A stretch of DNA of 64,000 nt from an uncultured Alphaproteobacteria bacterium (GCA_951812775.1 OX638326.1:2241391-2305390); one strand, 5' to 3'; shown: positions 1 through 31,072, counted from the first letter of the stretch. Numbers and translations are program-made. Notes: a model not told the origin generated them from the letters alone.

Positions 1-870
1 TCCGGCGTAAACCGGCCTGACGTTATGCAACGACAGGGAAACTATCCGCCACCCAAAGGGGCGCCGGATATTCCTGGTTTGGAAATTGCCGGTACAATTG
101 TCGATATCGCAGGTGATATTAAGGGCTGGGCGCTCGGTGATGAGGTCTGTGCCTTAGTTGCAGGCGGCGGATATGCCAAATATTGCGCTGCACCAGCCCC
201 GCAATGTCTCCCTGTTCCAAAAGGCATTCAACTGATTGACGCGGCGGCTCTTCCAGAAACAATGTTTACGGTTTGGGACAATGTTTTTACGCGTGGCGGG
301 CTATCAGTGGGAGAAACCATCCTGATTCACGGCGGTTCCAGCGGCATCGGCACAACCGCCATTCAACTCGCTGTCGCCATTGGAGCGACGGTGTACGTCA
401 CAGCCGGTTCTGATGAAAAATGCAGGGCCTGCGAAGAGTTGGGGGCTAGCAAAGCAATCAACTACCGTGAGACCGACTTTGTCGACGCGGTTCAGGAATT
501 AACCGACAAGAAAGGCGTCAACGTTGTCCTCGATATGGTGGGCGGCGACTATGTCGCACGCAATCTGCGGGTTCTTGCAAAGGCCGGTCGGCTTGTACAA
601 ATCGCGGTGCAGCAAGGCACCAAGGCTGAAATCCCTGTCCATGTCATTATGTTGAAGCAGATTACCTTTACGGGATCGACTTTGCGCCCGCGCTCCGTTG
701 CAGAAAAAGCATTGATTACTGAGCAACTTCGTGACAAAGCATGGCCTTTGATTGAAACGGGTAAAGTCAAGCCGCTGATTTTTGAGCGTTTTCCTCTTGC
801 AGAGGCTGCGAAAGCCCACGCATTGATGGACAGCAGCGCCCATATCGGTAAAATTGTCCTGACCGTTTAA
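1..870 (+). CDS. qor: NADPH:quinone oxidoreductase, zinc-independent MDR family (Qor-like); 5' end lies outside the window
   Basis: The ORF at 25..870 reads as the central and C-terminal part of a Qor/zeta-crystallin protein (GxGxxG-like Rossmann segment, ending ...HIGKIVLTV). The frame is open to position 1, so the true start is upstream of the window. Confidence 0.7.
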   Translation, partial: SGVNRPDVMQRQGNYPPPKGAPDIPGLEIAGTIVDIAGDIKGWALGDEVCALVAGGGYAKYCAAPAPQCLPVPKGIQLIDAAALPETMFTVWDNVFTRGGLSVGETILIHGGSSGIGTTAIQLAVAIGATVYVTAGSDEKCRACEELGASKAINYRETDFVDAVQELTDKKGVNVVLDMVGGDYVARNLRVLAKAGRLVQIAVQQGTKAEIPVHVIMLKQITFTGSTLRPRSVAEKALITEQLRDKAWPLIETGKVKPLIFERFPLAEAAKAHALMDSSAHIGKIVLTV

Positions 871-994
871 TGGCGTGCGTTGATCCTGTGATCGCGTCGC
901 TATTTCGCCCCAGAGCAAGCATTCCGCATCGCGGTTTGCAGCTGTCGGTTCGGCGGCTGGGGTGTCACGTGTGTCCGAAAACAAAGGAGAGACC

Positions 995-1831
995 ATGAGT
1001 CAGGTCCTTATGCCAAAAGCAACGGCTGTTTGGCTTATTGATAATACCGCACTGACCTTTGATCAGGTTGCGGAGTTCTGCGGATTGCATCCGCTGGAAG
1101 TGCAAAGCATTGCTGACGGCGAAGCCGCAATCGGTATGGTTGGCTACGATCCGATCACCAACGGCCAGTTGACCAACGAAGAGATTGAGCGCTGCGCCGC
1201 TGACCCGGAAGCCCGGCTGGAAATTGCCGAGGTAAATGTACCCCGCCCGGTCACCCGGACCAAAGGACCGCGCTATACGCCAGTTGCACGTCGTCAGGAT
1301 CGTCCTGACGCTATCGCCTGGCTGGTGAAGAATTTCCCGCAGCTATCCGACGGACAGATTTCACGGCTGGTTGGCACCACGAAACCGACAATCAACGGCG
1401 TTCGTGAACGGACTCACTGGAATATCAATAATATCAAACCGCGTGACCCGGTTGCCCTGGGACTCGTCGCACGTGATGATTTGACGGCGGCGATTGAGAA
1501 AGCAAACCGGGCGGTTGAGCGCGCGGAAAAACGTAAAGCAAAAGAAACAGGAAAGGCAGCACCGGTCGCTCCCGTAGTTGAAGAAGCAACTCCGGAACCT
1601 GTTGTCGCACCAGTCGAGGAACCGGTTGAAGCACCAGCAGCTGAAGCCGAGATCACTGCCGAGAGCGTCTTTGGTCCCGCCGCAGATGCTGAAGAAGCAC
1701 CCGCCGAAGCTGAGGCAAAAGAACCATCGCCAGAACCCGCCGTCGAAGATGATGGTAATCCGTTTGCGGCACTTGGCAGTTTGCTACCCGCCGATGATCA
1801 GGCCGGCAAAACTGAAGACAAACAGGACTAG
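995..1831 (+). CDS. DUF1013-family conserved alphaproteobacterial protein with an acidic Pro/Ala/Glu-rich C-terminal tail
   Basis: N-terminal block MPKATAVWLIDNTALTFDQVAEFCGLH is typical of DUF1013. GGAGAG ribosome-binding site lies 5 nt before the ATG at 995. The C-terminal 90 aa are low-complexity (PEPVVAPVEEPVEAPAAEAE...). Confidence 0.55.
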   Translation: MSQVLMPKATAVWLIDNTALTFDQVAEFCGLHPLEVQSIADGEAAIGMVGYDPITNGQLTNEEIERCAADPEARLEIAEVNVPRPVTRTKGPRYTPVARRQDRPDAIAWLVKNFPQLSDGQISRLVGTTKPTINGVRERTHWNINNIKPRDPVALGLVARDDLTAAIEKANRAVERAEKRKAKETGKAAPVAPVVEEATPEPVVAPVEEPVEAPAAEAEITAESVFGPAADAEEAPAEAEAKEPSPEPAVEDDGNPFAALGSLLPADDQAGKTEDKQD

Positions 1832-1865
1832 GTAGACGCGGGCCAACCGCCTCTACGACGCCTAA

Positions 1866-2894
1866 TTGATGGCCAAAAAGCCAGACTATCCGTTCGAGCG
1901 GCTCGATTACGGGGAAACCAAGGAAGTCGTCCCGGGCATCCACTGGATTCGGATGCCCCTCCCCTTCGCCTTAAACCACATAAATCTGTGGCTGGTAGCA
2001 GATGGTGACGGCTGGACGATTATCGATACCGGATACAACACCGACGAAACCCGCGACATATGGGAAAATGTGTTCTCCGACGTCCTGGACAGCAAACCGG
2101 TTAAAAGGATTATCGTCACCCATTTTCATCCAGACCATGTTTCTCTCGCAGGCTGGCTCATCGAAAAATGGGATGCCCCTGTCTGGATGACCTACTCGGA
2201 ATGGATGCAGGCCCAGTTAAATCGTTATGGCGGTCCGACCGCTGACATCGATGCCAGAATGGATTTCTACATCGAACATGGCATGGAACAATCGGGCATT
2301 GATGGCTATCGGGAAACACGGCCCGATTTCTCAAAAATTATTTTACCTCTGCCTACCGGGTTCCGGCGCATGATTGATGGCGAAGAGTTTTCCATTGGCG
2401 AGCATAGCTGGCGCGTCATCACAGGCGCCGGGCACTCCCCGGAGCACGCCGCGCTTTGGTGCAAGTATCTGAATGTGTTGATTTCCGGTGATCAGGTGTT
2501 GCCACGCATTTCCACAAATGTGAGTCTGCAATGCAATGAACCGGATGGCGATCCTCTTCGACTGTACCTTGAAAGCCTTGAAAAGTTTCGTGACCTGCCG
2601 ACAGACGTGTTTATCCTGCCGTCACACGACCGACCCTTCTACGGACTGCATGACAGAATTGATGTGCTCGGGGAGCATCATGCCGAACGGCTTGATGCAG
2701 CTGTCGAGGCCTGCGCAGAACCAAAATCATCGCGTGAATTAATTCCGTTTCTTTTTAAACGGGAACTTGATCGTCATCAGCTGGGCTTTGCCATCGGCGA
2801 AGCAATGGCACACGCCAACTATCTCGTTGCGGATGGCCGGTTATCGAAAGCCCGCGGCGAGGACGGGATTATTCGTTACTCACAAACCCCTTAA
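1866..2894 (+). CDS. MBL-fold metallo-hydrolase
   Basis: HFHPDHV motif (HxHxDH) plus downstream His/Asp ligands. 342 aa. Confidence 0.65.
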   Translation: MMAKKPDYPFERLDYGETKEVVPGIHWIRMPLPFALNHINLWLVADGDGWTIIDTGYNTDETRDIWENVFSDVLDSKPVKRIIVTHFHPDHVSLAGWLIEKWDAPVWMTYSEWMQAQLNRYGGPTADIDARMDFYIEHGMEQSGIDGYRETRPDFSKIILPLPTGFRRMIDGEEFSIGEHSWRVITGAGHSPEHAALWCKYLNVLISGDQVLPRISTNVSLQCNEPDGDPLRLYLESLEKFRDLPTDVFILPSHDRPFYGLHDRIDVLGEHHAERLDAAVEACAEPKSSRELIPFLFKRELDRHQLGFAIGEAMAHANYLVADGRLSKARGEDGIIRYSQTP

Positions 2895-2903: not shown

Positions 2904-4544
2904 CTAATCCTGTCGGGCTTGTGCCTCTAGCTCGCGCAGTGCCCGACGATCAATCTTCATCAAGGTTGTCCGCGGCAGCATGTCTACAAAAGCCATTTCC
3001 TGCGGCACTTTGTAACCACCAATTTTGCGAACGCCTTCTTTGATCTCGGTAACCAGCGTGTCATTAACTTCGACATCAGGTTTCAGGACGATAAAGGCCT
3101 TGGGCTGCGTAAGACCTTCACGGTCTTCAAACGAGATGACAGCCGCTTCCAGCACACTGTCATGCTCAGTAATCGCTGCTTCCACCTCAATCGGCGACAC
3201 CCACAACCCTTTGACCTTGAAGACATCGTCACTACGTCCGGAGAACCAGAAGAAACCGTCCTCATCGAACTGCAAAGTATCCCCGGTCCGCGCCCATTCA
3301 CCAACAAACGTTTCCCGGCTCTTCTTGAGCTTGCGCCAGTAAAAGAAACAGGTTGTCCGGCTGCCAATCCACGCTTCGCCGTCGGTGTTGGGCTCCGTCA
3401 CCTCATTGCCGTCGTCATCCATAAGCCTGACGTCATAGCCAAAGACCGGTTTGCCGAGGCTCCCGCGCCGAAATTCTTTGGGCCGATTGGCGATCCATTC
3501 ATAGGTGATTTCTGAAGAGCCAATAGAGTCCAGAATCTCAAGTCCGAACAACTCCTCAAATTTTTCAAACACCTCGGGCGGCATTTTTTCAGATGCTGAC
3601 GTGACTAAATTCAATGACGAGAAATCCGGGACCCGCTCCTGCTCCGCAAACAGCAACAGGTTTTTGATGATCGTCGGCACGGTGATGAGCTTGTTGGGCT
3701 TCGTCTTCTCGATCACCCCAACAACATTCTCTGCCGATGGTGGCAGTCGCGAGATGACGCTGGTCGCGCCGAAATAAAACGGGATCAGAACCGCCGGCCA
3801 GATACCATGGGTAAAATATTTCTTGGAGGTCGCATGAACGACGTCATCCGGTCCGTACTCCATAAACGTGCCATGCCGTTCAGGAACGAGATAGAAATCA
3901 TGAGCCAAATGGGTAATGCCCTTTGCGGGCCCCGTCGTGCCACCCGAATAAAACATGTAGGTGACGTCATTGTGATGCAACGGCACGGGCGCAAATGTTT
4001 GGAGTTGCCCTTCAACCATCTCGTTGTAGGTCAACGTATGTCGATCGCCGGATTCCGGGGCATCACCTATGTCATCTCCCCGAACGATCACATTCTCCAA
4101 TGTCCAGGGCATATCGTCAGCAATCTCGGCTAACTTTTCGGATTGTTCGACATCGATAAACAACGACTTGGCAGCTGTATCGCGCAGAAAATAGAGAAGA
4201 TTTGGCGCTTTATAGGCGTCGGAAACAACGACAGGCACGATACCTGCCCGGATCGCCCCAAACCACAAGGCCAGATATTCAACACTATCCGTCCCAAACA
4301 GTAATATGCGTGACCCTGTCTCAATCTTGAGTGTTTTCAGCCCGTGCGCCGCGCGGCACACCAGCCCAAGAAACTCTTCATAGCTGTAGCTGTCATCATC
4401 AACGATGAGCACCGTTGAACCGGCTTTACCACCTGACAAATGTTTATCAAGAACGATTGTGGTCGGATTAAAATATTCCGGTACTTCCGGGTCGTTCCAG
4501 CCTTGCCATTCTTTGCCGAAGATTATGTCCTTATGATCACTCAC
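2904..4544 (-). CDS. AMP-dependent acyl-CoA synthetase/ligase (benzoate-CoA ligase-like); candidate oxalate--CoA ligase
   Basis: AMP-binding motif FYSGGTTGPAKG. 546 aa. Same strand and immediately downstream of frc-oxc. Confidence 0.7.
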   Translation of the reverse strand: MSDHKDIIFGKEWQGWNDPEVPEYFNPTTIVLDKHLSGGKAGSTVLIVDDDSYSYEEFLGLVCRAAHGLKTLKIETGSRILLFGTDSVEYLALWFGAIRAGIVPVVVSDAYKAPNLLYFLRDTAAKSLFIDVEQSEKLAEIADDMPWTLENVIVRGDDIGDAPESGDRHTLTYNEMVEGQLQTFAPVPLHHNDVTYMFYSGGTTGPAKGITHLAHDFYLVPERHGTFMEYGPDDVVHATSKKYFTHGIWPAVLIPFYFGATSVISRLPPSAENVVGVIEKTKPNKLITVPTIIKNLLLFAEQERVPDFSSLNLVTSASEKMPPEVFEKFEELFGLEILDSIGSSEITYEWIANRPKEFRRGSLGKPVFGYDVRLMDDDGNEVTEPNTDGEAWIGSRTTCFFYWRKLKKSRETFVGEWARTGDTLQFDEDGFFWFSGRSDDVFKVKGLWVSPIEVEAAITEHDSVLEAAVISFEDREGLTQPKAFIVLKPDVEVNDTLVTEIKEGVRKIGGYKVPQEMAFVDMLPRTTLMKIDRRALRELEAQARQD

Positions 4545-4633
4545 AGCGCCGTCTTTCTTGTTTCTCTAATAGTTAACCAGGCACAATTTTTCCCTACCAG
4601 ACTCCGTCCGGCAAGAGGAAACCGGGAAAAACG

Positions 4634-5884
4634 TCAAATTGCGCCTTCTTCACGGGCGGCCGCAATTTCCTCATCATTTAATCCGAGCACAGTCTTCAGA
4701 ATTTCATCCGTGTGTTCTCCGAGCAACGGCGATCGTTTTACATCAGACGGCGAGTCAGAAAGTTTCACCGGATTACCAACCGTGAGATATTTTCCGCGTT
4801 CAGGGTGATCGACTTCCACAATTGTGCCGGTTTCCCGCAGCGACGGTTCCTCCGCCAACTCTTTCATCGACAGGATTGGCCCACAGGGAATGTTAAGAGG
4901 ATTGCAAAGATTCATGACCTCAAACTTATCCATGGTCATGGTCCATTCTTCAATCGCATCAAAGATAGGCTTAATCTTGTCGAGCCGATCCGCTGGCTTG
5001 GCATAGCCAGGGTCTTCTTTCCATTCCGGTTTCCCGATCAGATCGCAAATATTTCCCCATACCGCGGCCTGAGTGATGAAATAGACATAGGCGTTGGGGT
5101 CTGTCTCCCAGCCTTTGCATTTGAGAATCCAGCCTGGCTGCCCACCGCCGGAATCATTGCCGGCACGTGGTGTCGCGTCGCCAAACTCAATGCCCTGACC
5201 AAACTGGCTATATTCTTTTAACGGACCATGGGCGAGCCGTTGCTGATCCCGCAGCTTCACGCGCGAAAGGTTCAGAACGCCGTCCTGCATGGCGCACTCA
5301 ACGCGCTGGCCTTTGCCGGATTGTTCGCGATGGTAGAGTGCCGTGACGATCCCGAAGGCGAGATGAAGGCCGGTGCCGGAATCACCGATCTGGGCGCCGG
5401 TAACAAGCGGTGGTCCATCGAGGAAACCCGTTGTCGACGCCGCCCCACCCGTGCATTGGGCGACGTTTTCATACACCTTGCAGTCCTCATATGGTCCGGG
5501 ACCGAACCCTTTGACCGACGCATAAATCATCCGTGGGTTGATCTCCTGGATTTTTCCCCAGGGAAACCCCATCCGATCGATCGCGCCTGGGGCAAAATTT
5601 TCGACCAGCACATCGCATTCCTCGATCAGCTTGGTGAAAATTTTGGCACCCGAATCCGTCTTGGGATTCAGTGTAACACTACGCTTATTGTGATTCAGCA
5701 TCGTGAAATACAGGCTATCGACATCCGGAATATCGCGCAGCTGCCCTCGTGTGGCATCACCGACCCCAGGTCGTTCAACCTTGATCACGTCAGCGCCAAA
5801 CCACGCCAATAGTTGCGTGCAGGTTGGCCCGGACTGCACATGGGTCATGTCCAGAATTTTTACACCTTCAAGGGCTTTACTCAT
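4634..5884 (-). CDS. frc: formyl-CoA:oxalate CoA-transferase (family III CoA-transferase)
   Basis: Near-colinear similarity to Oxalobacter Frc ([35 protein letters not shown]..., [17 protein letters not shown]...). 416 aa. Confidence 0.85.
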
Positions 5885-5917
5885 GTTCTCGATCCTCTTC
5901 TTAAGAGTTAAACGACG

Positions 5918-7630
5918 CTATTTCTTCCCGACGACGCTTTGCGGGTTAAGGTTGCCAATCCGGCCACTCTCTGTCCCTGCCTCCGCATCAATCACAGCGT
6001 TCACTAAAGTTGGTTTTCCCGAGTCCATGGCAGCGTTGACCGCCTGACTTAATTCATCGGGAGAGGTGGCATTGAACCCGACACCCCCAAAGGCTTCCAT
6101 CATCTTGTCGTAGCGGGCATCCTTCACAAACACGGTTGTTGCCACATCATCGCCAGCGGCATTCTGATCCGTTCCGCGATAAATACCACCATTGTTAAAC
6201 ACGACGACGCAGACCGGCAGGTTGTAGCGGCAGATCGTTTCGATCTCCATGCCCGAAAAACCAAAGGCACTATCCCCCTCAACGGCAAGCACCGGATTTC
6301 CGGTCTCCACCGCCGCGGCTATCGCTGTTCCCATGCCAACACCCATCACACCCCAGGTGCCAACATCCAGCCGTTTGCGCGGCTGATACATATCAATAAT
6401 GCTGCGGGCAAAATCGAGTGTATTCGCGCCCTCATTGACCATGATGGCATCAGGGCGTTCCTTAATGATTGTCTGCAAGGCGCCAAGAGCCCCATGATAA
6501 TCCATTGGAACATTGTTGTTTTGCAGCCGCGGTGCCATCCGTTCAACATTGCTCGCGACCTTTTCCTGAACCGCACTTGTCCATGCTGTCGGGGGTGCCG
6601 TCCAGTCCTTGCCCATAGCCGAAAGCATCGCCTCCACACAGGAGCCAATATCCCCAACGACGGGGGCGGCAATCTCGACATTGCTATCCATTTCACGGGG
6701 CTCAATATCTATATGGACAAATTTCTTGGGCGCGGTTCCCCAAGCCTTTCCCTTACCGTGCGACAACAGCCAGTTCAGGCGTGCGCCAATCATCACAACA
6801 ACATCGGACTCTTTCAGCACCAAAGAACGTGCGGCACCGGCTGATTGCGGATGGGTGTCAGGTAACAACCCCTTGGCCATGCTCATCGGGAGATAAGGAA
6901 TACCGCTGGTCTCTACCAAGGCACGGATCGCGTCATCAGCCTGAGCATAGGCGGCGCCCTTACCCAGAATAATGAGTGGCCGTTCAGCGCCTTTCAAGAC
7001 ATCAAGTGCGCGATCAATAGACTCAGGCGCGGGAAGTTGGCGCGGCGCCGCATCAACGACCTGCACCAATGACTTGGCTCCATCATCAGCATCCATTACC
7101 TGCCCGAGAAGTTTGGCTGGCAGATCAAGATAGACGCCACCAGGACGACCTGACACCGCCGCCCGGATCGCCCGCGCAATTCCGATACCGATATCCTCGG
7201 CATGGAGCACACGGTACGCCGCCTTACAAAGCAGTTTGGCGACAGCCAGCTGATCCATCTCTTCATAATCGCCCTGCTGCAGATCAACGATCTCGCGCTC
7301 CGAAGATCCCGAAATCAAGATCATCGGGAAGCAATTTGTCGTAGCGTGGGCGAGCGCCGTCAGCCCGTTGAGAAATCCCGGCGCCGATACCGTCAGGCAT
7401 ATGCCCGGTTTCTGTGTCAAAAAACCAGCAATCGCTGCCGCGTATCCCGCGTTCTGTTCATGTCGAAAAGACAGAACGCGCATGCCTTCTGCCTGCATCA
7501 TGCGACCCAGATCGGTAATCGGAATTCCCGGCACGTTATAAATTGTGTTGATGTCATTTAGTTTCAAAGCATCGATTACGAGATGAAACCCGTCTGTCAG
7601 ATTGCCAGTGTCCTGTGTTTCTTCCGCCAT
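5918..7630 (-). CDS. oxc: oxalyl-CoA decarboxylase (ThDP-dependent)
   Basis: Strong similarity to Oxc ([16 protein letters not shown]..., [38 protein letters not shown]...). 570 aa. Contiguous with frc. Confidence 0.85.
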
Positions 7631-7639
7631 GTTCTTTTC

Positions 7640-8328
7640 CTAATCGAGATAATGTACGTGCTGTTCAACGTGAGCAGCCAAATCCAGCGTATGTTGCCGG
7701 ACCAACGGCTCAGCGAGTTCGGTGTCGCGATTTTCGAGCGCCTCAATGATATTCATATGATCGATGATTGACCGGCTCGCGCGATTATTCTCTCCAATTG
7801 TGCGCACGCGAATTGAGCGCATATGAATGAATAATGTTTCGGTAAGCGAATTCAGCAGTTCGCTCTTACTCAGTTTCAAAATTGCCTGATGAAACTCAAT
7901 ATTGGTGCCAGAATACCCATCGATATTTGCCTGAGGCTTTTCATTTTCAAATGTCGTGAACATTCGTCGTAACCCGGCTATTTCGTCATCGCTGGCATTT
8001 TGCGTTATCAGACGCGCAGCCATGTTTTCCAATGCCGCCCAAACCGTGATCATCTCCAGAATTTCTGTCTTCGTTTTACGAACCACAAAAACCCCGCGAC
8101 GGGAATGACCCTTACCAATCCTTCTTGGGCCAATCGGGCAAGCGCTTCGCGGACCGGCGTCCGGCTAACTCCAAGGTCTTCAGACAGCAGTCGCTCATCA
8201 AGACGTGGCTCACCATCACCTTCATAGATGTCGATGGTGGTGATCGTCTCTTTAAGCGCCTCATAGGTTCGATCCTTAAGGCTAAAGGAGACGTCTATCG
8301 GCTGAAGATCAAGTCTTACAGTTGCCAA
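7640..8328 (-). pseudogene. GntR/FadR-family (FCD) transcriptional regulator, disrupted by a -1 frameshift in a homopolymer near 8087-8091
   Basis: N-terminal wHTH ORF (8050..8328) and C-terminal FCD ORF (7640..8086) overlap in different frames. Restoring one T in the T5 run (coding strand) gives the expected ...RVIPVAGFFVVRKTKTEILEM... . Confidence 0.7.
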
Positions 8329-8359
8329 GGAATTTCTCGCTCAATTTAACGAAGAAAAA

Positions 8360-8379
8360 TGGTGGTATACCACATACCA
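8360..8379. promoter_or_regulatory. putative GntR/FadR-type operator palindrome (tGGTATACCa) in the divergent oxc / TRAP intergenic region
   Basis: Perfect palindrome TGGTATACCA fits the FadR-family consensus t.GT.N.AC.a. It lies between the divergently transcribed gntR-oxc-frc operon and the TRAP operon. Confidence 0.35.
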
Positions 8380-8407
8380 TAGGAAATCAGCCCATAGGAA
8401 ATCAGCC
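8378..8407. repeat. perfect 15-bp tandem duplication (cataggaaatcagcc x2) in the intergenic region
   Basis: Direct reading of the sequence. Confidence 0.6.
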
Positions 8408-8570
8408 TTCGTCACGCCTAATCGAAGCAATTATGCTGGTTCACCAGTTGAAATTTTTGTGAGATAAAAATCGAGATCAGTGCGTTTCAGCCAAGAAGCT
8501 GATTGTCGGCCTAACCAAGAGTTACTAAGCTTCCAATCCTGTAGTTACAAACCAACTTGGGGGAGACATT

Positions 8571-9557
8571 ATGAAACGCCTATTAACGGGAGTCGCTGTC
8601 GCCGGAATGGTGATCGGCGGACTTTCAGTTGCCGCCAACGCAGCAACGATCAAAATTTTGGCCAGCTGGAACAAAAACGTTTGGCCGACCTATGTGGTGC
8701 TCGACAGCTTTGTAAAGAACGTTAAAAAGCTGGGTGGCGATAAAATCAAAATTCGGATCAGTGGCCCAGAAGTGGTCCCTGGTTTCCAGCAGCTACAACC
8801 GGTTAAAGCAGGCGTTTTCGATATCCTGTTTACCCATGGTGTCTATCACATGGGATCCAAGGGACTGGCCGCCATTATGGATGCCATGAACTCTGACCCG
8901 GTCGGCAAACGGACATCGGGCGTTTGGGATCACCTCGACAAATTCTATCAGAAAACCCATGGGCTGAAGTTGCTGGCCATTTCACCCAACAGCACCAAGG
9001 GCTACCACATTTTCCTCAAGAAACCGCTATCGGGTAAAGGCGATTGGAAAGGCCGTAAAATCCGTGGCACGCAGACCTATCACGGTGTGATCCGTCTGTT
9101 CGGCGGCGAACCGGTTGTGATGCCTGGCTCGCAGGTTTATTCCGCATTGGAGAAAGGCGTTGTTGATGGCGCAGCATGGCCAGCCGCGGGCATGCTTAGC
9201 ATGAAGCATTTCGAAGTAGCCAAGTACAAGGTTCGCCCAACTTTCGGCACCTCAACTTTGCCCTTCCTTATGAATCTCAAAAGCTTCAACAAGCTGAGCA
9301 AGGAAAAGCAGAACATCCTGCTGCAAGCCGGTTACATGACCGAGCTTGAAATGCCTTGGGTTGGTGATCAGGTACAGGCGAAGGAAGATGCCGAACTTGC
9401 CAAAAAAGGCGTCAAGATTACCAAACTGCCTGCCGACCAGGTGGCCAAGATGCGTAAGGCTTTCTCGGAAAGCATCTGGGCTCTGGGCGCGAAGTGCTGT
9501 GGCGCAGACGCCAAGAAGCTTCGTGAACTCGCCGAAAAGGCTGGTCTATCCTGGTAA
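8571..9557 (+). CDS. dctP: TRAP transporter solute-binding protein, DctP family
   Basis: Signal peptide, DctP-like length (328 aa), followed by DctQ and DctM genes. Confidence 0.75.
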   Translation: MKRLLTGVAVAGMVIGGLSVAANAATIKILASWNKNVWPTYVVLDSFVKNVKKLGGDKIKIRISGPEVVPGFQQLQPVKAGVFDILFTHGVYHMGSKGLAAIMDAMNSDPVGKRTSGVWDHLDKFYQKTHGLKLLAISPNSTKGYHIFLKKPLSGKGDWKGRKIRGTQTYHGVIRLFGGEPVVMPGSQVYSALEKGVVDGAAWPAAGMLSMKHFEVAKYKVRPTFGTSTLPFLMNLKSFNKLSKEKQNILLQAGYMTELEMPWVGDQVQAKEDAELAKKGVKITKLPADQVAKMRKAFSESIWALGAKCCGADAKKLRELAEKAGLSW

Positions 9558-9583
9558 AATAGATCGATGAAATTGAGACGGGC

Positions 9584-9612
9584 CACGGGACATTCAGTCT
9601 CGTGGTTCTCTC
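9584..9612 (+). terminator. intercistronic hairpin (ccacgggac/gtctcgtgg) followed by a T-rich tract between dctP and dctQ; possible attenuator
   Basis: 9-bp stem with one mismatch and a 5-nt loop, then ttctctcttatttc. Flanked by 14-bp direct repeats gatcgatgaaattg at 9563..9576 and 9623..9636. Confidence 0.35.
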
Positions 9613-9629
9613 TTATTTCTGATTGATCG

Positions 9630-10151
9630 ATGAAATTGTACCGGACATTTGAACGCGGTCATGACTGGCTGACAGTCGCGGGGTATTACCTCGCCTGCAT
9701 CGCTCTATCGATAATTTTCGGCGCCTATATTATCGAGGTTTTCGCCCGCTATTTCTTTAATGCGCCACAATGGTGGGCCAGCGAGGCCGTGTCCTACTCG
9801 CTATGCGCCTGCACCTTCCTGATGATGCCCTACGTTACCTGGAAAAAAGGGCACGTCGCCGTCGCTCTGATTTTTGACCTGTTGCCAACAAATGGCGCGC
9901 GCGTTGCCATATGGTTGACCTATCTGCTCGGAACGCTTTTCTGCGGGTTTGCAACCTGGATTTCCATGGATGAAACCGCGCGGCAATTCATCAGCAATAT
10001 TGATCTCATGGCAGTCAAACCGGTTCCTAAATATTTGATTTCAATTTTCATTCCATTTGGTTTTGCAAGCTCAACTTTGCACTTCATGCGTCTTCTCGAT
10101 TTTAAGGCGATTGACCCTGATGCCTCCGCCGGCGGCTTTGGTGAGAGCTGA
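9630..10151 (+). CDS. dctQ: TRAP transporter small permease, DctQ family
   Basis: 173-aa protein with four TM segments, between dctP and dctM. Confidence 0.75.
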   Translation: MKLYRTFERGHDWLTVAGYYLACIALSIIFGAYIIEVFARYFFNAPQWWASEAVSYSLCACTFLMMPYVTWKKGHVAVALIFDLLPTNGARVAIWLTYLLGTLFCGFATWISMDETARQFISNIDLMAVKPVPKYLISIFIPFGFASSTLHFMRLLDFKAIDPDASAGGFGES

Positions 10152-10154
10152 TCG

Positions 10155-11465
10155 ATGGGTTGGGAAGCCACATTAATCACCGCATTGCTGCTTCTCCTGG
10201 CCGCTTTTATGTCGGGTGCGCCGCTCTTTGTTGCTTTCCTGGCGATCAACCTCACCGGCGTTGCCATTTTTCTTGGCCCTGCCGGGTTTGGCATGGTCGC
10301 CAACTCAATTTTCGACACCACGAACAATGCCGACATGGCGACAATTCCGCTCTTTATTCTGATGGCCGAGGTGCTGTTTCGCTCCGGCACTGTCGACATC
10401 CTGTTCGATGCTGTCGATAAGTTGATCGGCCGTATGAAAGGTCGTCAGTATGTTCTGACAATCTCTCTTTCCACGGTGTTTGGGGCTTTGTCAGGCGCCG
10501 GAATGGCGGTGGCTGCCATGCTGGCCCGGACCATTTTTCCAACCATGCGCAATCGCGGATACGACTCCAAACTTGCCATCGGGAATATTCTCGCCGGTGC
10601 CAGCCTAGCGCCGATTATTCCGCCGAGCGTCCTGGCCATTGTCATTGGGACACTTTCCAACACATCGATTGCCGGCCTGCTGATCGGCGGCATCATTCCC
10701 GGTCTGATGCTTTCCGCAATGTTCCTGACCTATACGATGGTGCGCGTAAAACTGAATCCTTCGCTCGCACCTGACGATAGTGACGATGAAACCCCAAAAA
10801 TTTCGGCCGGAGAGAAGCTGCGGGCGCTCGCGGGCTGTCTGCCTTTCGCCCTGATCATCTTTTCGGTCATGGGATTTATCATGTTCGGCATCGCGACACC
10901 TTCCGAGGCAGCGGCAACAGGTGTACTCGCGGCGATTATCACAGCCGCGTATTATCGAAAGTTGAGCTGGAAGATGATCACCGAGTCGCTCGGCACGGCA
11001 GCTTTCATCACCAGTATGATCCTGCTCATTATGGCGAGTTCGCGGATGTTTAGTCAGTTGCTGGCTTTCACTGGCGCGACAACCGAACTTACAAACCTGA
11101 TCGTCAACCTTGGTTGGCATCCGATGCTGATGTTATTCATCATGATGGCGATCCCGTTCATCCTTTGCATGTTTATCGATCAGATTGCCTTGATGCTTGT
11201 GGTCATTCCGATCTATCAGCCATTGCTGACGACCCTCGGATTCGATCCGATTTGGTTCTGGCTCATCATGCTGTTGAATGTAACGGTCGGCGGTATTTCG
11301 CCGCCCTTTGGCTATGTAATATTCGCCTTCCAGGGTGCAGCAGATAAAGTTCAAATTGCCGAAGTCTTTAAGGCATCCTGGCCATTTGTCGTGTTGTTTC
11401 TTCTGGGCATGGTGGTGCTGGCCGCCTTCCCGTCGCTGGTCACCTTCCTGCCAGGGCTGATATAA
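10155..11465 (+). CDS. dctM: TRAP transporter large permease, DctM family
   Basis: 436-aa polytopic permease. Start lies 4 nt after the dctQ stop. Confidence 0.8.
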   Translation: MGWEATLITALLLLLAAFMSGAPLFVAFLAINLTGVAIFLGPAGFGMVANSIFDTTNNADMATIPLFILMAEVLFRSGTVDILFDAVDKLIGRMKGRQYVLTISLSTVFGALSGAGMAVAAMLARTIFPTMRNRGYDSKLAIGNILAGASLAPIIPPSVLAIVIGTLSNTSIAGLLIGGIIPGLMLSAMFLTYTMVRVKLNPSLAPDDSDDETPKISAGEKLRALAGCLPFALIIFSVMGFIMFGIATPSEAAATGVLAAIITAAYYRKLSWKMITESLGTAAFITSMILLIMASSRMFSQLLAFTGATTELTNLIVNLGWHPMLMLFIMMAIPFILCMFIDQIALMLVVIPIYQPLLTTLGFDPIWFWLIMLLNVTVGGISPPFGYVIFAFQGAADKVQIAEVFKASWPFVVLFLLGMVVLAAFPSLVTFLPGLI

Positions 11466-11481: not shown

Positions 11482-12075
11482 CTATTTAACAGCCTCAAGA
11501 TTGAGGCTCATCAGGCGACCACTCTCTTTGTCCATATGCGGTAAGTGCGCTTGTGAGTAATCGTCCACATCCGCATGTTCCGTATTCTGCCAGTCCCAAC
11601 GGTGCACATCCGAAAACCCTGCCTGCAGCAACAAACCCGACAAGAGTGGCGCATCGAAAATCATGTGATGGAAATCGGTTTCGTCTCACTGGCCACCGCA
11701 AACAAGGCCGACCAGGCCGGATAAGCCATCCTTAAGGCCTTGCTCATAATAGATCGCGGCACAGGCTGCAAAATCGGGAACCGCCAGACGCAGGACGCCG
11801 CCGGGCTGAAGCACACGGCACCATTCCTGCAGCACATCAACAATTTGAAACCGGCCAAAATGTTCCAACACGTGGCAGGCATAGATCAACTCGACTGTAT
11901 CGTCTGCGACAAAAGTTAACTTATCGACGGAACAAAGTTGATCGACATGCGGATAGGGCTGAATATCGACATGATAAAAGCCCGGGATGAACTTTCCACC
12001 GCATCCGAGATGTAGCCGTTTCATATTGGGCGTTACGTCGACAATGTTATTTGACCGCGGCAACGAGTCAGCCAT
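11482..12075 (-). pseudogene. class I SAM-dependent methyltransferase (type 11-like) with an in-frame TGA at 11686..11688
   Basis: The two ORFs 11686..12075 and 11482..11664 share one frame and are separated only by TGA (...LVCGGQ*DETDFHHMIFDAPLL...). Together they give a ~197-aa methyltransferase-sized product. Confidence 0.55.
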
Positions 12076-13796
12076 GCGGATTTACCTCTTTACACCAATG
12101 ACACCACATATGCCTGATAGCATCTTCCATCGCCGTAACAAATCTCTTTTGATCCGCTAAGGGAGACGCAGCTGCCCGCTGGCGCAATGATTTGCGGTAA
12201 GTCGCAATTTGCTCCGGCGCCTTAGCCAAAGCCTTCGCTAACTCTAAATATTGCTGTTCATCCGCAGCCACTAATCCATCATGACCAATTGTATTTAAAA
12301 TGCCGGTCGCCATACGCGACACATATCGATCACCAGCAATCGTGATGGTTGGCACCCCCATCCACAAGGCCTCACAAACGGTCGTCGCACCCGAATAGGG
12401 GAAACTGTCGAGCATGATGTCGATCTTTCCGAACAGAGAGAGATGGCCTTGCTTGTCAGAAAGGTGATCAAACAGATCCAGACGCTCTTCCCCAATATTT
12501 TTGTCGGCAAAGATTGAAAGAACACGCTGACGAAGTTGAGGATCTCTCAGCCCCCGCCCTTTGATCACCATTCGGGAATTTGGCACGACCGTCAGGATAT
12601 TTGCCCAACACCTCAAAAGACGGTCATTTATTTTACTGAGATTATTTAGCGATCCGAACGTGACGAAGCCGTTTTCCTCAATAGGGGCTGAATCTGGTAA
12701 CGGCATTTGATCTTCCGGCGCATAGCAAAATAACGACTCCGGCAAATGGAGAAGCTTCTCGTTGTAATGTGCGTCATGTTCCGGAGGATCTATCTGTTTG
12801 TCCGTGATCCGCCAATCTAAGGCATCCATACCCGTTGACCCACCATATCCCAGCCAGCTCTCCTGAACCGGTGCAGGGCGTTCTGCAAAGGCCAGCAACC
12901 GGTTTCCCGCCGTATGGCCGGCAACATCTATAAGAACATCTGTGCGGTCTCGCCGAATTTGCGCCGCCAGTTGATCGTCAGCCATGCCAAACGTACGACA
13001 CCAATGGTCAGAGTTCTGTTCGAACCAATTTGTCTGGCCATCGATACGCGCAACTTCCGCATAGGAGAAAATTTCAACCTTTTGCCGATCATGTTCCGCG
13101 TAAAGTGGTGTCAGAAATCGACCGACCGCATGATCGTGGAAATCGGGCGATACATACCCAACCCGCAAGCGACGATCTTTTGACGGTTCGTTTGGGTGAG
13201 AAAAACCCTTCTGCAGTCGAGGCAGCGCATGTCGCTTATTCCAGCTCCGGGCCTCCGCCAAGATGCTTAGCGGCGACACCTCCGGCTCCAACGCAATCAC
13301 CCGACGAAAGGCATTTATGGCATCGATAGGACGCCCATGAGCGCGGAAAAGATTTCCAAGATTATTCCAGGCGGCCGGCATATTGGGATTGAGGTCGAGC
13401 GCCGTTCGAAAAGCTATTTCAGCCTCGAAGAATTGCCCTTGCGCTTCCAGAACGCCGCCGAGTGTCACTTGGGAAATCGCGTGACAATTGTCGATCGATA
13501 TGGCTTCGCGGCAAATGCGCTCCGCTTCTTCGATCTTGCCCTGCATCGCCAGCACATTTGCGAGATTATTTCGAGCCGAGACCTCTTTGGGAGCAATGGA
13601 TACCGCTTCGCGGAAGATTGCTGCCGCCTCATCAAACTGCGCCTGTAGATACAGGCCCGTGCCGAGATTGTTGTAAGCATCAAAATATTGCGGCTCGATA
13701 TCAATCGCCCGGCGAAATGCCGCCTCTGCCTCTACGGACTGACCATTTCTATTCAGGGCAATACCAAGATTATTGTGCGCTACAGCATAGTCAGGC

Positions 13797-15088
13797 GGGC
13801 GCCTCTAAAAACCTCGTCATTTTGGCCATGATCTGCTTCACTTCTCTCATCGGCTTGATGGAGGATGGAATGTCGGATCAGCCCGGTTTTTTCGATCTTG
13901 ATGAGCGTTACGCGGCGCTGTCGGCGGCGGGTGATCCGTTGCTTCGGCTTGGTGAGTTGGTCGATTTCGAGTTGTTTCGCCGGCCCTTGATCCGGGCGCT
14001 ACGTCGCTCGGACCGGCGCCAGGGTGGCCGGCCTCCCTATGACCCCGTTCTGATGTTCAAGATCCTGGTGTTGCAGGCACTATACAATCTCTCGGATGAT
14101 CAAACCGAGTTCCAGATCCGCGACCGGCTGTCTTTCATGCGGTTCCTGGGCCTGGGGCTTCACGCCCGGGTGCCGGACGCCAAGACGATCTGGCTGTTCC
14201 GTGAGTTGCTGGTGCAGGCCAAGGCGATCGAGGCGTTGTTCGATCGCTTCGACGAACACCTGCGCGGCCATGGCTACCTGGCGCTGTCGGGCCAGATCGT
14301 CGATGCCACGATCGTCGCGGCGCCCAGGCAGCGCAACAGCGTTCCGGAGAAGGTGGCGTTGAAGGCCGGCAAGGTGCCAGAGGAGTGGAAGGACAAGCCG
14401 GCCAAGCTGGCCCAGAAAGACCGGGATGCGCGCTGGACCATGAAGCGTGGCCGAGTGAAGCGTCTGGAGGATGGGCACCCCAAGGGGCCGGAGATCATGG
14501 TGCCGGCGTTTGGCTACAAGAACCACATCTCCACGGACCGGCGGCACGGGTTGATCCGCAAGTGGCGCGTCACCGATGCCGCCGCCAATGACGGCCGCCA
14601 GCTCGCCGGTCTGATCGATCCGGAGAACACGGCGAGCCCGGTCTGGGCGGATACCGCCTATCGGTCCAAGCGTAACGAGAAGATGCTGGCGCGCCAAGGC
14701 AAGCGCTCCCAGATCCACTTCCGCAAGCCGCGCGGCAAGCCGATGCCGGCGACCCTGGCCAAGGCCAACGCGGCGCGCTCGGCGGTACGCTCCGCCGTCG
14801 AGCATGTCTTCGCCCATCAGAAAGGCTTGATGGCGCTCTCGGTTCGGACCATCGGCATCGCCCGGGCCGAGGCCAAGATCGGCATGACCAATCTGGCGTA
14901 TAACATGCGCCGTTTCCTCTGGCTCCAGGGGCGAAGTGCGCCCACATGACGCCGGAACGGCCGGTTCGACCGGCTAAACCGATCAAATCGACGCAAAACG
15001 GCTCGAAAAACCGACACTCAGACGCGCCCACCCGGTCAAATCACGCCGCAAGCGGCCAAACCGAACGTTCTTCGAGGTGTCCAGGCAC
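13797..15088 (+). mobile_element. IS5-family insertion sequence (boundaries approximate)
   Basis: Contains a DDE transposase with the YNLSD motif. The host TPR gene is split exactly here. The ends begin GGGCGC.../...GCGCCC (imperfect inverted repeats). Exact termini and target-site duplication could not be fixed by eye. Confidence 0.65.
13858..14949 (+). CDS. IS5-family DDE transposase
   Basis: ...YDPVLMFKILVLQALYNLSDDQTEFQIRDRLSFMRFLGL... resembles IS5 InsH-type transposases. 363 aa counted from the ATG at 13858. Confidence 0.8.
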   Translation: MEDGMSDQPGFFDLDERYAALSAAGDPLLRLGELVDFELFRRPLIRALRRSDRRQGGRPPYDPVLMFKILVLQALYNLSDDQTEFQIRDRLSFMRFLGLGLHARVPDAKTIWLFRELLVQAKAIEALFDRFDEHLRGHGYLALSGQIVDATIVAAPRQRNSVPEKVALKAGKVPEEWKDKPAKLAQKDRDARWTMKRGRVKRLEDGHPKGPEIMVPAFGYKNHISTDRRHGLIRKWRVTDAAANDGRQLAGLIDPENTASPVWADTAYRSKRNEKMLARQGKRSQIHFRKPRGKPMPATLAKANAARSAVRSAVEHVFAHQKGLMALSVRTIGIARAEAKIGMTNLAYNMRRFLWLQGRSAPT

Positions 15089-15585
15089 GTACTTTACAGC
15101 CTTTTGGTAGGCTTTAATCACGCCGTCGAAATCTTCGATCTGGCGCAAAATATTTCCATAATTGTTGTGATATATCGCGTTGGCCGGATCCAGTGACAGA
15201 GATCGCGCGACGAGCGCCAGAGCCTTTTCTGTTTGCCCCATGTCGCCAGCGATAATGCCGAGAAAGTTGAGCGCATCTGGAAGGTCTGGATATCGATCCA
15301 GCACCGATTGATAAAGACCCGCGGCCCGCGTCAGATCACCAGCTTGATGGAAACCAACGGCGGTCTCCATATCCCGCATGACATCGGATGTAAGATTGGC
15401 GGCAGCAGTTAGGGCTACGCCCTGTTTACGAGCTTTTTTAGTAGTTTTCGCAGATTGGCGGCGCTGAGCGCGATTCATGTACGGGTCCCCAAAGCCGTTA
15501 AACAGCGGCGATGGGGTTACCCTAAGAGCAATCCGTTAAGGCGCGCTTAACCATAGAGGTCCAAAGAGAACCTCGGAAATCAGGC

Positions 15586-17073
15586 TTAGGCGCTTGCAGC
15601 GGCTCCGGCAGAGGTTCCGGCGAGTTTGCCAAAGACTGACCCTGCCGTGAGGCCTGATCCACCGGGATAGTTGAAGTAGAACAACCCACCAACGCACTCG
15701 CCTGCAGCATAAAGGCCTTCCATCGGCATTAAATCAGTGTCGACGACCTGCCCCTCGGTATTGATGCGCAGCCCGCCAAACGTGAACGTCACACCGCATG
15801 TGACCTGATAGGCCTCAAAGGGTGCGGTATCAATTGTCTGTGCCCAGTTTGATTTATTGATCTCAAGACCTTCCGTGCAACGTCCATCTTTGACGTTCGG
15901 ATTATATTCAATGTCCTGATTGACCGCTGCATTGTACTCTTTGATTTCCTGGAGGAAGGCTTCCTTATCGACACCTTCCAGTTTGTCAGCCAGGTCCTCG
16001 ATCATATCAGCCGTAACTTTAGTAACCTGGCGGATCGAATATTCGTCACGCTTGAGATGCGCCACTTTGGCATCAAGAACCTGCCAGGCGAACTGCGCCG
16101 GCTGCTCAAGAATAACACGACCATATTTTGCATAAGTGTAGTTCCGGAAATCCGCCCCTTCATCGACAAAACGTTTGCCGGTCGCGTTGACCATGATGAA
16201 GAACGGATAGGAGTGCTTCTGGAACTGATCACCAACAGCGAGGTCGCCAAATTCCGGTGCGTTGCGATCCCAGCCCACAGCGTGACAGCCTGACCAGTTA
16301 CCATATGTCGCCGCACCGATATCTGTCGCCATACGAATGCCGTCACCGGTGTTAAAGCGTGTGCCCCGAATTTTTGCCAGATCCCAGCCCGGACCAAGAT
16401 AGCGAGTCCGCCATTCAGGGTTTGCCTGGAAGCCGCCGGACGCCATAACAACCGATTTACAGCTCAGCTCTTTGACTTCATTGCCCTGCTTGATCCGAAC
16501 ACCGCAGACCTTTGCACCATCGAACACCAGGCTCATCGCCCGGGTCTCGAACATGGTCTCAATGCCATCTCTCTTGGTAATCTCTTGTTGGGCTTCATAC
16601 AGACCTGGGCCACCGCCGTTGGTTTCAACCGTCAGACCACCCCAAAACTTGAACTTGCCATCGATCTTAAAGGCCTGCCGTCCATAGATAGGCACGAACC
16701 GGATACCCTTTTCACGCATCCAAGTCAGTGTTTCGAGGCTGCGGGTAACAAGAGTTTCTGCCATATCCGGGTCCGTACGGAACTGGGTGACACGGAAAAT
16801 GTCATCGAAGAACTGATCCTGCGTATAGGTACCGAAATCTGTATCTTCGATTTCCTGGTCGGAAAGCTCTACAAGCTTCTGGATATCTTCGACACCATCG
16901 TAAACCACGCGCATCGCACCAGCGGTAAAGCGTGTATTGCCGCCAGCTTCATCTTCCGGCGCGCGTTCCAGCATGACGATTTTTTTGGCGCCAGCATCCT
17001 GGGCCGCCATTGCTGCACATGCTGCCGCGTTGCCCGCGCCAACGACAATTACATCATAATCCGTATCAGCCAT
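15586..17073 (-). CDS. FAD-dependent oxidoreductase, TcuA (tricarballylate dehydrogenase)-like / fumarate reductase flavoprotein family
   Basis: N-terminal DVIVVGAGNAAACAAMAA FAD-binding fold. Landmarks IRGTRFN, GVTFTFGGL and AAGE..GG match the TcuA family. 495 aa. Confidence 0.6.
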   Translation of the reverse strand: MADTDYDVIVVGAGNAAACAAMAAQDAGAKKIVMLERAPEDEAGGNTRFTAGAMRVVYDGVEDIQKLVELSDQEIEDTDFGTYTQDQFFDDIFRVTQFRTDPDMAETLVTRSLETLTWMREKGIRFVPIYGRQAFKIDGKFKFWGGLTVETNGGGPGLYEAQQEITKRDGIETMFETRAMSLVFDGAKVCGVRIKQGNEVKELSCKSVVMASGGFQANPEWRTRYLGPGWDLAKIRGTRFNTGDGIRMATDIGAATYGNWSGCHAVGWDRNAPEFGDLAVGDQFQKHSYPFFIMVNATGKRFVDEGADFRNYTYAKYGRVILEQPAQFAWQVLDAKVAHLKRDEYSIRQVTKVTADMIEDLADKLEGVDKEAFLQEIKEYNAAVNQDIEYNPNVKDGRCTEGLEINKSNWAQTIDTAPFEAYQVTCGVTFTFGGLRINTEGQVVDTDLMPMEGLYAAGECVGGLFYFNYPGGSGLTAGSVFGKLAGTSAGAAASA

Positions 17074-17154
17074 TTATTCGTGTTCCTCTGATCTCACCGG
17101 TCAAAATTATGACGTGGATATACCGGCTAACGCCCGCCGCGACAAGGGCGCGCC

Positions 17155-18255: not shown

Positions 18256-18311
18256 GACTGACTACTTCAATAACAACACTGACCGCTTATACGCTTGCTA
18301 ACCAACAACAG

Positions 18312-19220
18312 CTAGTCGTCGCTCGCGGCGGCGTTCCGCAAAACATCTGCGGCGATATTACTCAATGCAAGCGCTGACGGGCTGAGTGTCCGCCCGATAG
18401 GCCTGATAATCCCTATTGTCCGACTCACCACAGGATCGACGAGAGGCCGAAAAACCAGCTTAAGGTCCGGACGCTGCACTGTTGCCAGTTTGGGAACCGC
18501 TGAAACGCCCAACCCGTTTCCAACCATGCTCATTAACGTCGAAATATGGGCGACTTCATGGGTTCCCGCTGGCAACAGACCACTTTCCCCAAGGGCGCTT
18601 TCAAGCTTTCGCTGATTGCCAGCTTCCGCCCCCATTCGAATATATGTGTGTTTGCGAAGATCGGTCCAGGTAACACGCCGCTTCCGGGCCAGCGGATGGT
18701 CCTCCCGACAGGCGAGAAGGTAAGGGTCATCTATCAAAGGCTGATATTCTAAGTTGGGACGGTCTTCAGCCGCTAGGGCGATTGCAAATTCGGCATCCCC
18801 GGTCGTCACAAAATCCGCAACCTTTGGACCAACATCATCCATTACCCGCACGGAGACCGACGGAAATTGTTCGTTAAACTGCGCAATAACCCGCGGCAGC
18901 ACATTCTGGGCAATTGTCAGGACCGACGCCATAGTTACAACACCCGCCCGTTTTTCGATGATATCCTGAATATCGTCCATCGAGCGTTCAAATTCCCGGA
19001 CCATTCGCATGGCGGTCGGCAGAAACTCTTCGCCAATTGTTGTGAGCGCGACCGTCCGTGAGGTGCGGTCGAGCAACCTCACATGGAGGACGTCTTCCAT
19101 TTTCTTAAGACGTCGCGAGAGGCCAGATTGGGTAATCGCCAACTCTTCCGCTGCGCGATGAAAATTTTTTATCTCGGCGACCAGTACAAAGGCGCGCAAA
19201 TCTTCAATGCCTATTCTCAT
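18312..19220 (-). CDS. LysR-family transcriptional regulator
   Basis: N-terminal HTH (IKNFHRAAEELAITQSGLSRRLKKME) plus LysR substrate-binding domain. Divergent from the PrpF-like gene. Confidence 0.8.
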   Translation of the reverse strand: MRIGIEDLRAFVLVAEIKNFHRAAEELAITQSGLSRRLKKMEDVLHVRLLDRTSRTVALTTIGEEFLPTAMRMVREFERSMDDIQDIIEKRAGVVTMASVLTIAQNVLPRVIAQFNEQFPSVSVRVMDDVGPKVADFVTTGDAEFAIALAAEDRPNLEYQPLIDDPYLLACREDHPLARKRRVTWTDLRKHTYIRMGAEAGNQRKLESALGESGLLPAGTHEVAHISTLMSMVGNGLGVSAVPKLATVQRPDLKLVFRPLVDPVVSRTIGIIRPIGRTLSPSALALSNIAADVLRNAAASDD

Positions 19221-31071: not shown

Positions 31072-31072
31072 T

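Follow-up and report, generated by a model that had tools for sequence, protein, structure and literature searches.

Whether the genes that adjoin an oxalate degradation module also take part in oxalate degradation is the question raised by a stretch of 64,000 nucleotides (nt) from an uncultured Alphaproteobacteria bacterium (GCA_951812775.1, OX638326.1:2241391-2305390), referred to here as the window. Between positions 2,904 and 11,465 it carries oxc and frc, encoding oxalyl-coenzyme A (CoA) decarboxylase and formyl-CoA:oxalate CoA-transferase, together with a gntR regulator gene, a gene for an AMP-forming acyl-CoA ligase, and the divergent genes dctPQM for a tripartite ATP-independent periplasmic (TRAP) transporter. 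An earlier note on this DNA had read the ligase as a possible activator of oxalate and the transporter as a candidate importer of oxalate or dicarboxylates; all seven genes were found where it had placed them. Comparison with related loci makes it fairly probable, in our judgement, that the locus is an ordinary oxalate module that has been trimmed and has lost its own uptake system and probably also its regulator, and that the TRAP transporter and the ligase are bystanders, which would act on substrates other than oxalate. Judged from its best relatives, the organism is an uncultured marine alphaproteobacterium of the Rhodospirillaceae-like UBA2964 type.

The two enzymes at the core of the module are intact. 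Oxc contains the complete three-domain architecture of thiamine pyrophosphate (TPP) enzymes (TPP_enzyme_N, M, and C) and reaches 1010 bits against TIGR03254 (cut-off 739) and 1016 bits against NF006721 (cut-off 557). Frc reaches 718.5 bits against TIGR03253 (cut-off 504.2) in an end-to-end match at residues 3-416 of 416. These curated equivalog scores bear out the earlier call of a CoA-dependent oxalate catabolic pair with a GntR regulator. Frc would move CoA from formyl-CoA to oxalate, Oxc would decarboxylate oxalyl-CoA to formyl-CoA and CO2, and a repressor of the GntR/FCD type would control the module. The description of the locus as a compact four-gene operon holds in part. The gaps are short (9 nt between gntR and oxc, 33 nt between oxc and frc, 89 nt between frc and the ligase gene), and no terminator was predicted in the frc-ligase spacer, where RNA folding gave no significant hairpin (z = -0.89); gntR, however, is not intact. 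Since the spacer has no predicted terminator, co-transcription of frc and the ligase gene is possible, and with it operon membership of the ligase. A scan of the whole 64-kb window against Rfam returned zero matches.

In relatives, the same module is headed by a tripartite tricarboxylate transporter (TTT), encoded by tctCBA. In one related locus (L008; L numbers denote loci of relatives) the order is tctC-tctB-tctA-gntR-oxc-frc, with no TRAP transporter. L010, whose DctP is 95% identical to that of the window, has this TTT operon too, with gntR on one side of it and dctP on the other. The two loci share 84% identity in TctC, 80% in TctB, and 89% in TctA. A metagenome scan with TctC of the L008/L010 type yielded 40 loci, 19 of which were informative, extending at least 1.5 kb beyond tctA. 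In all 19 informative marine loci, at TctC identities of 68-86% to the query, oxc was found directly downstream of tctA, in the order tctCBA-gntR-oxc-frc on one strand. dctP was also present only in L092 and L094, and L092 is identical to the L010 type and reaches just 1.4 kb beyond tctA. The gntR, oxc, and frc products of the TTT loci share 60-97% protein identity with the copies of the window or of L010. No orthologue of tctCBA was found in the 64-kb window, whose TctA at 21648-23627 is a paralogue with just 29% identity. In a dctPQM DNA tree, of which only terminal groupings with 100% bootstrap were used, L010 and L092, which have the TTT and gntR, group with L014, which has neither; other members of the TRAP-adjacent clade are without the TTT, with or without gntR. 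The position of L014 implies that the TTT was lost at least twice.

The gene orders of L008 and L010 and of the 19 metagenomic loci indicate that the adjacency of the TRAP transporter and oxc in the window is the product of a deletion and not of operon design. The module's own importer in this marine Alphaproteobacteria family would thus have been the TTT. In the lineage of the window, tctCBA would have been deleted and gntR frameshifted, and the deletion would have brought gntR and oxc beside a pre-existing TRAP operon. From the linkage, the TTT may be supposed to import oxalate. That it was the ancestral route of oxalate uptake in marine Alphaproteobacteria, and the first TTT to be assigned to oxalate, seems to us somewhat more probable than the opposite. 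No literature linking TRAP or TTT transporters to oxalate was found, and the coverage of the literature was incomplete, so that this is a weak sign of novelty.

Two observations concern the TTT loci themselves. In 16 of the marine loci L098-L129 (e.g., L101, 15047-17001), a gene for a 306-amino-acid (aa) formyltransferase-like protein (Formyl_trans_N/C) follows frc at about 30 nt, and in 14 of these 16 it is followed by fhs, the gene for formate-tetrahydrofolate ligase; neither gene is present in the window. The order frc-formyltransferase-fhs suggests that formyl-CoA or formate feeds the folate one-carbon (C1) pool. In L008 (6573-7806), frc is called as two overlapping open reading frames (ORFs) of 126 and 298 aa, probably owing to a frameshift in that metagenomic contig.

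The linkage of the TRAP transporter to oxalate genes is confined to one narrow clade. DctP, DctQ, and DctM occur together and form a complete TRAP system (TIGR00786, 281.7 bits; cut-off 268). DctP is not a C4-dicarboxylate DctP proper, with 63.5 bits against TIGR00787 (cut-off 175) and 36-38 bits against the solved C4-dicarboxylate DctPs 9DSY and 7NQG. DctP homologues were aligned and searched against one genome per species, giving 80 loci in which oxc and frc were sought with tblastn. The pair is confined to loci whose DctP shares at least 88% identity with that of the window, which corresponds to one genus-level clade; among the 80 loci, none of the DctP relatives at 71-84% or 51-66% identity has oxc or frc within 10 kb. 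The co-inheritance across divergent lineages that would mark a dedicated oxalate uptake system was accordingly not found for the TRAP transporter. The distant homologues lie among amidase, TetR, and RidA-like genes, among genes for Mo-hydroxylases and luciferase-like proteins, or among genes for shikimate dehydrogenase, citryl-CoA lyase, a CoA-transferase, and UbiD decarboxylases. The frc-like CoA-transferase beside distant DctPs was considered as a YfdE-type oxalate transferase and rejected, since it falls far below every curated cut-off; together with its shikimate dehydrogenase and citryl-CoA lyase neighbours, this leaves no oxalate link for the distant DctPs. A linkage of the DctP family to amidases (25 of 80 loci, by loose single linkage) was not used, and the amidase of the window (27583-28962) is just 34% identical over 201 aa to those beside distant DctPs. 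The other conserved neighbour of the TRAP transporter is a tcuA-like gene, which is convergent with dctM in relatives and directly follows it in L006, L010, L014, L015, and L017.

The binding protein points in the same direction. The 80 sequences have 61 invariant DctP residues in common, among them R165, the GxKIR arginine for the ligand carboxylate. No non-conservative substitution specific to the oxc-linked clade was detected in the 80 sequences, and hence no sign of a binding site retooled for oxalate. A structural model of DctP (predicted local distance difference test score 87.5) is closest to Bpro_4736 (4MNC/4MNI), whose ligand we take to be benzoylformate, and then to receptors for lactate and 2-oxo acids, including the TakP-like and lactate receptors 2HZL, 2ZZX, and 7UG8. 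These proteins share the fold (Foldseek template-modelling scores of 0.74-0.77) and the carboxylate arginine with the DctP of the window at a low identity of 19-25%. As a best guess, the ligand of DctP is a small 2-oxo or 2-hydroxy carboxylate, and oxalate is chemically possible. The proposed role as an importer of oxalate or dicarboxylates thus finds no support in the closest solved relatives, which bind other ligands. The view that this is the only transporter holds inside 2904-11465. It does not hold for the 64-kb window, which also includes another TRAP system at 37616-40608, a permease of the TctA type (21648-23627), and a major facilitator superfamily (MFS) gene (33285-34529); with several transporters at this distance, transporter adjacency comes cheap in this genome. 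No OxlT-type antiporter was found in 2904-11465, and the MFS gene of the window fits no oxalate/formate antiporter model of NCBIfam and has weak matches to other MFS models.

Several observations nevertheless weigh against taking the TRAP transporter and the ligase as bystanders. The metagenomic loci were found by means of TctC, and the 19 of 19 therefore shows that the TTT goes with oxc and not the converse. The TTT has been lost in nine of the 11 species-level loci of the TRAP-adjacent clade, which would fit redundancy with the TRAP transporter. The loss is seen within the 64-kb window, and tctCBA may have been relocated elsewhere in the genome. oxc and frc are intact and under strong purifying selection in lineages without an adjacent TTT. 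Against relatives, the ratio of nonsynonymous to synonymous substitution rates (omega) is about 0.02 for oxc and about 0.015 for frc (overall range 0.015-0.025); against those relatives that likewise have no TTT, dN is 0.03-0.13 and dS is at or past saturation. Such selection implies that oxalate or oxalyl-CoA must still reach Oxc and Frc; some importer or internal source of oxalate must exist, and the TRAP transporter is the nearest candidate. Its R165 is kept, and the nearest folds bind lactate and 2-oxo acids, which are chemically not far from oxalate. Lastly, with no terminator between frc and the ligase gene, their co-expression is plausible.

These points bear on a rival explanation, in which the TRAP transporter is the working oxalate importer of the clade, having been adjacent already when it took over from a TTT that was lost repeatedly; alternatively, it would import oxamate, glyoxylate, or another 2-oxo acid that resembles oxalate. 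A functional replacement of this kind would explain why tctCBA and gntR were lost repeatedly while oxc and frc are still selected. It would also agree with the divergent arrangement, 243 bp from gntR across a shared spacer that contains the GntR palindrome, with an adjacency found in every locus of the clade although the TTT and gntR disappeared at least twice, with the purifying selection that continues in the absence of the TTT, and with the conserved R165 and the lactate and 2-oxo acids bound by the nearest structural relatives (TakP, 7UG8). We nonetheless hold it to be doubtful. The closest relatives outside the clade have no oxc or frc within 10 kb, no residue of the binding protein is specifically altered inside it, and the genomic contexts of the rest of the family differ. 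In addition, both systems are kept side by side in L010, L092, and L094, and the operator would lie in the spacer only because gntR sits there, given that lineages without gntR keep the TRAP-oxc adjacency and have no such box.

The state of the genes bears equally on the idea that the module is a decaying remnant, with its transporter gone and its regulator broken, and that oxalate catabolism is no longer served. The window is without tctCBA, its gntR is frameshifted, gntR is absent from L013-L017, and the formyltransferase and fhs genes found 3' of frc in other lineages are missing here. oxc and frc, on the other hand, are full length and match the equivalog models from end to end, and across the clade their omega stays at about 0.02 while dS is saturated. 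The loss of a repressor, moreover, would mean constitutive expression and not lost function. Decay of the whole pathway is therefore very unlikely, and a module that was trimmed beside bystander genes remains the preferred explanation.

The regulator gene belongs to the FadR/FCD subfamily of GntR. Its helix-turn-helix (HTH) part (8050-8328) and its FCD part (7640-8086) lie on overlapping ORFs in different frames. The HTH and FCD domains that mark this subfamily are thus not joined in one polypeptide in the window, where a sequencing error is possible. Alignment with four intact orthologues (L009-L012, 229-233 aa) places a 1-nt deletion between 8102 and 8101, in a Pro codon. The frameshift could be genuine and gntR a pseudogene, or it could be a sequencing error in a homopolymer, and because the genome is apparently a single contig, the error is as possible as the pseudogene. 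Just upstream of gntR stands the perfect palindrome GTGGTATACCAC, which is kept at the same position in L009-L012 and is presumed to be the GntR operator. In L008, one 17-nt box related to it, GTGGTATACAAAATACC, lies ahead of both tctC and gntR, and a GGTATAC-type box upstream of gntR is common to the window, L008, and L010. A second palindrome, TGTCA-N7-TGACA upstream of dctP in L009 and L010, was considered as a TRAP-specific operator and dropped, since other loci do not keep it. Directly upstream of the GntR palindrome, at 8378-8407, a 15-nt sequence is perfectly duplicated in tandem (GGCTGATTTCCTATG, twice, in the minus-strand reading), which is not the case in L009 or L010.

The ligase is a member of the benzoate-CoA-ligase family, passing the cut-off of TIGR02262 narrowly (388.3 bits; cut-off 375.25). 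Its best solved relatives, which align over the full length, are the anthranilate-CoA ligase AuaEII (4WV3, 308 bits) and benzoate-CoA ligases (252-266 bits) such as BadA (4EAT) and Paraburkholderia xenovorans BCL (2V7B). The solved plant and yeast oxalate-CoA ligases (AAE3/Pcs60/LsOCS type) score about three times lower (5IE0, 102; 6QJZ, 107; 8AFF, 92 bits), so that they are not the closest relatives of the ligase. The benzoate cavity of BadA is formed by Y228, G327, S328, T329, H333, and I334 (PMC7277991). These positions align with H246, G342, S343, S344, Y348, and E349 of the ligase. Four of the six differ (Y228 to H246, T329 to S344, H333 to Y348, I334 to E349), and W249 and W350 take the place of Gly and Phe. 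In view of the four differences, the substrate is probably not plain benzoate. The pocket is nearly constant among 120 homologues with 62-100% identity, which take in members without oxc or frc nearby: H246, G342, S343, and Y348 do not vary at all, S344 and E349 recur in 119 of the 120, and the motifs FTHG[IL]WP and SSEITYEWIAN are essentially unchanged. A glutamate at position 349 of the cavity would speak against a dianion such as oxalate, and a polar aryl acid or a similar acid appears to be the likeliest substrate.

The neighbourhoods of the homologues (P numbers) agree with a role outside the oxalate module. One that is 62% identical (P0120) lies among UbiD decarboxylase genes without oxc or frc nearby, another (P0107, 65%) among Paa-like, enoyl-CoA hydratase, and Rieske genes, and a third (P0060, 73%) in yet another context. 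P0077 (64%) and P0065 (68%) adjoin the MBL-fold gene that the window also has, again without oxc or frc, and the orthologues in L090 and L091 also have no oxc or frc nearby. The steadiest neighbours of the ligase gene are those of the ADH-TrcR-MBL block, which flanks its orthologues with or without oxc and frc. In L008, where the ligase is 78% identical to that of the window, frc and the ligase gene have two opposite-strand genes between them; in L089, the interval holds genes for an ADP-forming acyl-CoA synthetase and a Usp protein. In metagenomic TTT-oxc-frc loci, the ligase gene was not found within 2 kb 3' of frc. The ligase is most likely a backbone gene from an uncharacterised aryl-CoA-ligase-like clade and not a part of the oxalate module. 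Adjoining it is a variable region, which is occupied by the oxalate module in some lineages and by hydantoinase and amidase genes in L090. The module would occupy this variable spot beside a conserved ligase-MBL-TrcR-ADH backbone, and the ligase gene may have come to lie 89 nt behind frc by the loss of intervening genes, with readthrough from frc possible.

A role as an oxalate-CoA ligase, in line with the earlier note, or as a formate-CoA ligase, either of which would prime the Frc/Oxc cycle, would suit the co-oriented position of the gene 46-89 nt 3' of frc in nine or more species-level loci, where no terminator intervenes, and its location no more than a few kb away from oxc-frc in L008 and L089. 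We regard this as highly improbable in view of the family membership and the threefold lower scores against solved oxalate-CoA ligases, and of a Glu-bearing pocket motif that is virtually unchanged in L090, L091, P0077, P0107, and P0120, all without oxc or frc nearby. The two opposite-strand genes of L008, the ADP-forming synthetase that fills the slot after frc in L089 and L096, and the absence of the ligase after frc in the metagenomic TTT-oxc-frc loci also stand against it. As to the earlier interpretation as a whole, the gene placement and the oxc-frc pair stand, and the split gntR and the additional transporters modify its picture of the locus; the oxalate ligase and the TRAP importer do not stand. 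It had named three findings that would tell against it, of which two were made, a ligase clustering with benzoate-type ligases and a DctP closest to proteins with other ligands.

Other acyl-CoA synthetases and a transporter were observed near the ligase or frc in relatives. An ADP-forming (NDP-forming) acyl-CoA synthetase with ATP-grasp_5, CoA_binding, and Succ_CoA_lig domains is encoded directly 3' of frc in L089 (4126-6255) and L096 (15268-16989), and L008 has a 235-aa fragment of such an enzyme near the ligase gene (11675-12382). This synthetase is a better candidate than the AMP-forming ligase for priming the Frc/Oxc cycle with a CoA thioester. In L089, a gene for an anion symporter of the DASS family adjoins the ligase gene.

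The module can be compared with known systems. Oxalobacter formigenes and the type II pathway of Escherichia coli (yfdXWUVE) use the same Frc and Oxc at the equivalog level, with formyl-CoA regenerated by TPP-dependent decarboxylation. The locus of the window differs from them in having no OxlT antiporter, no YfdV-type permease, and no YfdE-type priming transferase, and in its GntR/FCD regulator; its relatives would use a binding-protein-dependent TTT instead. With the operon tctCBA-gntR-oxc-frc(-formyltransferase-fhs) of L008, L010, and L096-L129, the window shares orthologous gntR, oxc, and frc genes and the GGTATAC-type box, but not tctCBA or the genes for the formyltransferase and formate-tetrahydrofolate ligase. 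The malonate locus of rhizobia comprises matR (GntR type), the decarboxylase gene matA, and the CoA synthetase gene matB, with a matPQM TRAP transporter in Sinorhizobium. The layout of the window resembles it superficially, with a GntR regulator, an acyl-CoA decarboxylase, an AMP-forming ligase, and a divergent TRAP transporter, which in the mat locus serves a short dicarboxylate. In the window, however, the layout would have arisen by deletions, the ligase belongs to the aryl-CoA ligase family and gets no more than 178 bits against the model of malonyl-CoA synthase (cut-off 558), and the TRAP transporter and the decarboxylase are inherited together in one narrow clade only.

Table 1. Positions of the genes and sites discussed, numbered from the first nucleotide of the window
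Feature	Position	Strand	Basis
ADH (25-870), TrcR (962-1831), and MBL-fold hydrolase (1866-2894)	25-2894	+	Pfam matches; backbone block with the ligase
AMP-forming acyl-CoA ligase, uncharacterised clade within the benzoate-CoA-ligase family	2904-4544	-	TIGR02262, structure relatives, neighbourhoods
frc, formyl-CoA:oxalate CoA-transferase, 416 aa, intact	4634-5884	-	TIGR03253, CoA_transf_3 domain
oxc, oxalyl-CoA decarboxylase, 570 aa, intact	5918-7630	-	NF006721, TIGR03254, three TPP domains
gntR, FadR/FCD subfamily, disrupted	7640-8328	-	GntR HTH and FCD domains on two overlapping ORFs
Perfect palindrome GTGGTATACCAC, presumed GntR operator	8362-8373	.	Just upstream of gntR; sole match in the window at <=2 mismatches
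dctP	8571-9557	+	Pfam DctP
dctQ	9630-10151	+	Pfam DctQ
dctM	10155-11465	+	Pfam DctM
tcuA-like, FAD-dependent tricarballylate dehydrogenase	15586-17073	-	NF006130, 565 bits (cut-off 369)

The rest of the window contains several further gene groups. Beyond dctM, an IS5-family transposase gene (13462-14949; DUF772 and DDE_Tnp_1; local GC content 65% against about 52%) splits a TPR/GT41 glycosyltransferase gene (region 12068-15478); L004 and L009 have this gene intact (723 aa). The inserted block of a methyltransferase and the GT41 gene between dctM and tcuA is found in the window, L004, and L009, and not in L006, L010, L014, L015, or L017. A possible tricarballylate/aconitate utilisation cluster (15586-23627) begins with the tcuA-like gene and also comprises genes for a YdjM-like membrane protein, a LysR regulator, a PrpF-family isomerase (19083-20396), a 369-aa ORF without a family match, and a 659-aa TctA-domain permease (21648-23627). 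It is followed at 25551-34529 by genes for a Rieske/VanA-like oxygenase, an SDR protein, an amidase, hydantoinases A and B, and an MFS transporter. In L090, genes for SDR, amidase, hydantoinase A/B, and MFS proteins lie directly upstream of the ligase orthologue, in the place of the oxalate module. The region 36735-42046 holds a second GntR/FCD regulator and the second complete TRAP system (37616-40608), then an intradiol (catechol-type) dioxygenase, as well as a 179-aa ORF, probably a fragment, whose sole match is to the N-terminal domain of malonyl-CoA decarboxylase. Secretion components of the HlyD and OEP types, an ABC membrane protein, an RTX-repeat protein (49546-51594), and a histidine kinase are encoded at 42248-56465, which looks like a type I secretion island and includes an IS1-like transposase fragment (54019-54903). 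The core glycolysis and pentose genes pgk, gap, and tkt are located at 59126-63374.

The locus of the window is a further case of the familiar Frc/Oxc pathway, here from an uncultured marine alphaproteobacterium. It also gives reason for caution, as the assignment of functions from adjacency is unsafe in genomes crowded with TRAP and TTT systems. The TTT-linked module of its relatives is the more interesting lead, and a testable one, on oxalate uptake in aerobic marine bacteria that have no OxlT gene in these loci: tctCBA is tied to gntR-oxc-frc in many marine contigs, often with the genes for a formyltransferase and formate-tetrahydrofolate ligase behind. If this lead proves true, oxalate would join the short list of TTT substrates, and the breakdown of oxalate would be linked to the C1-folate pool of the ocean.

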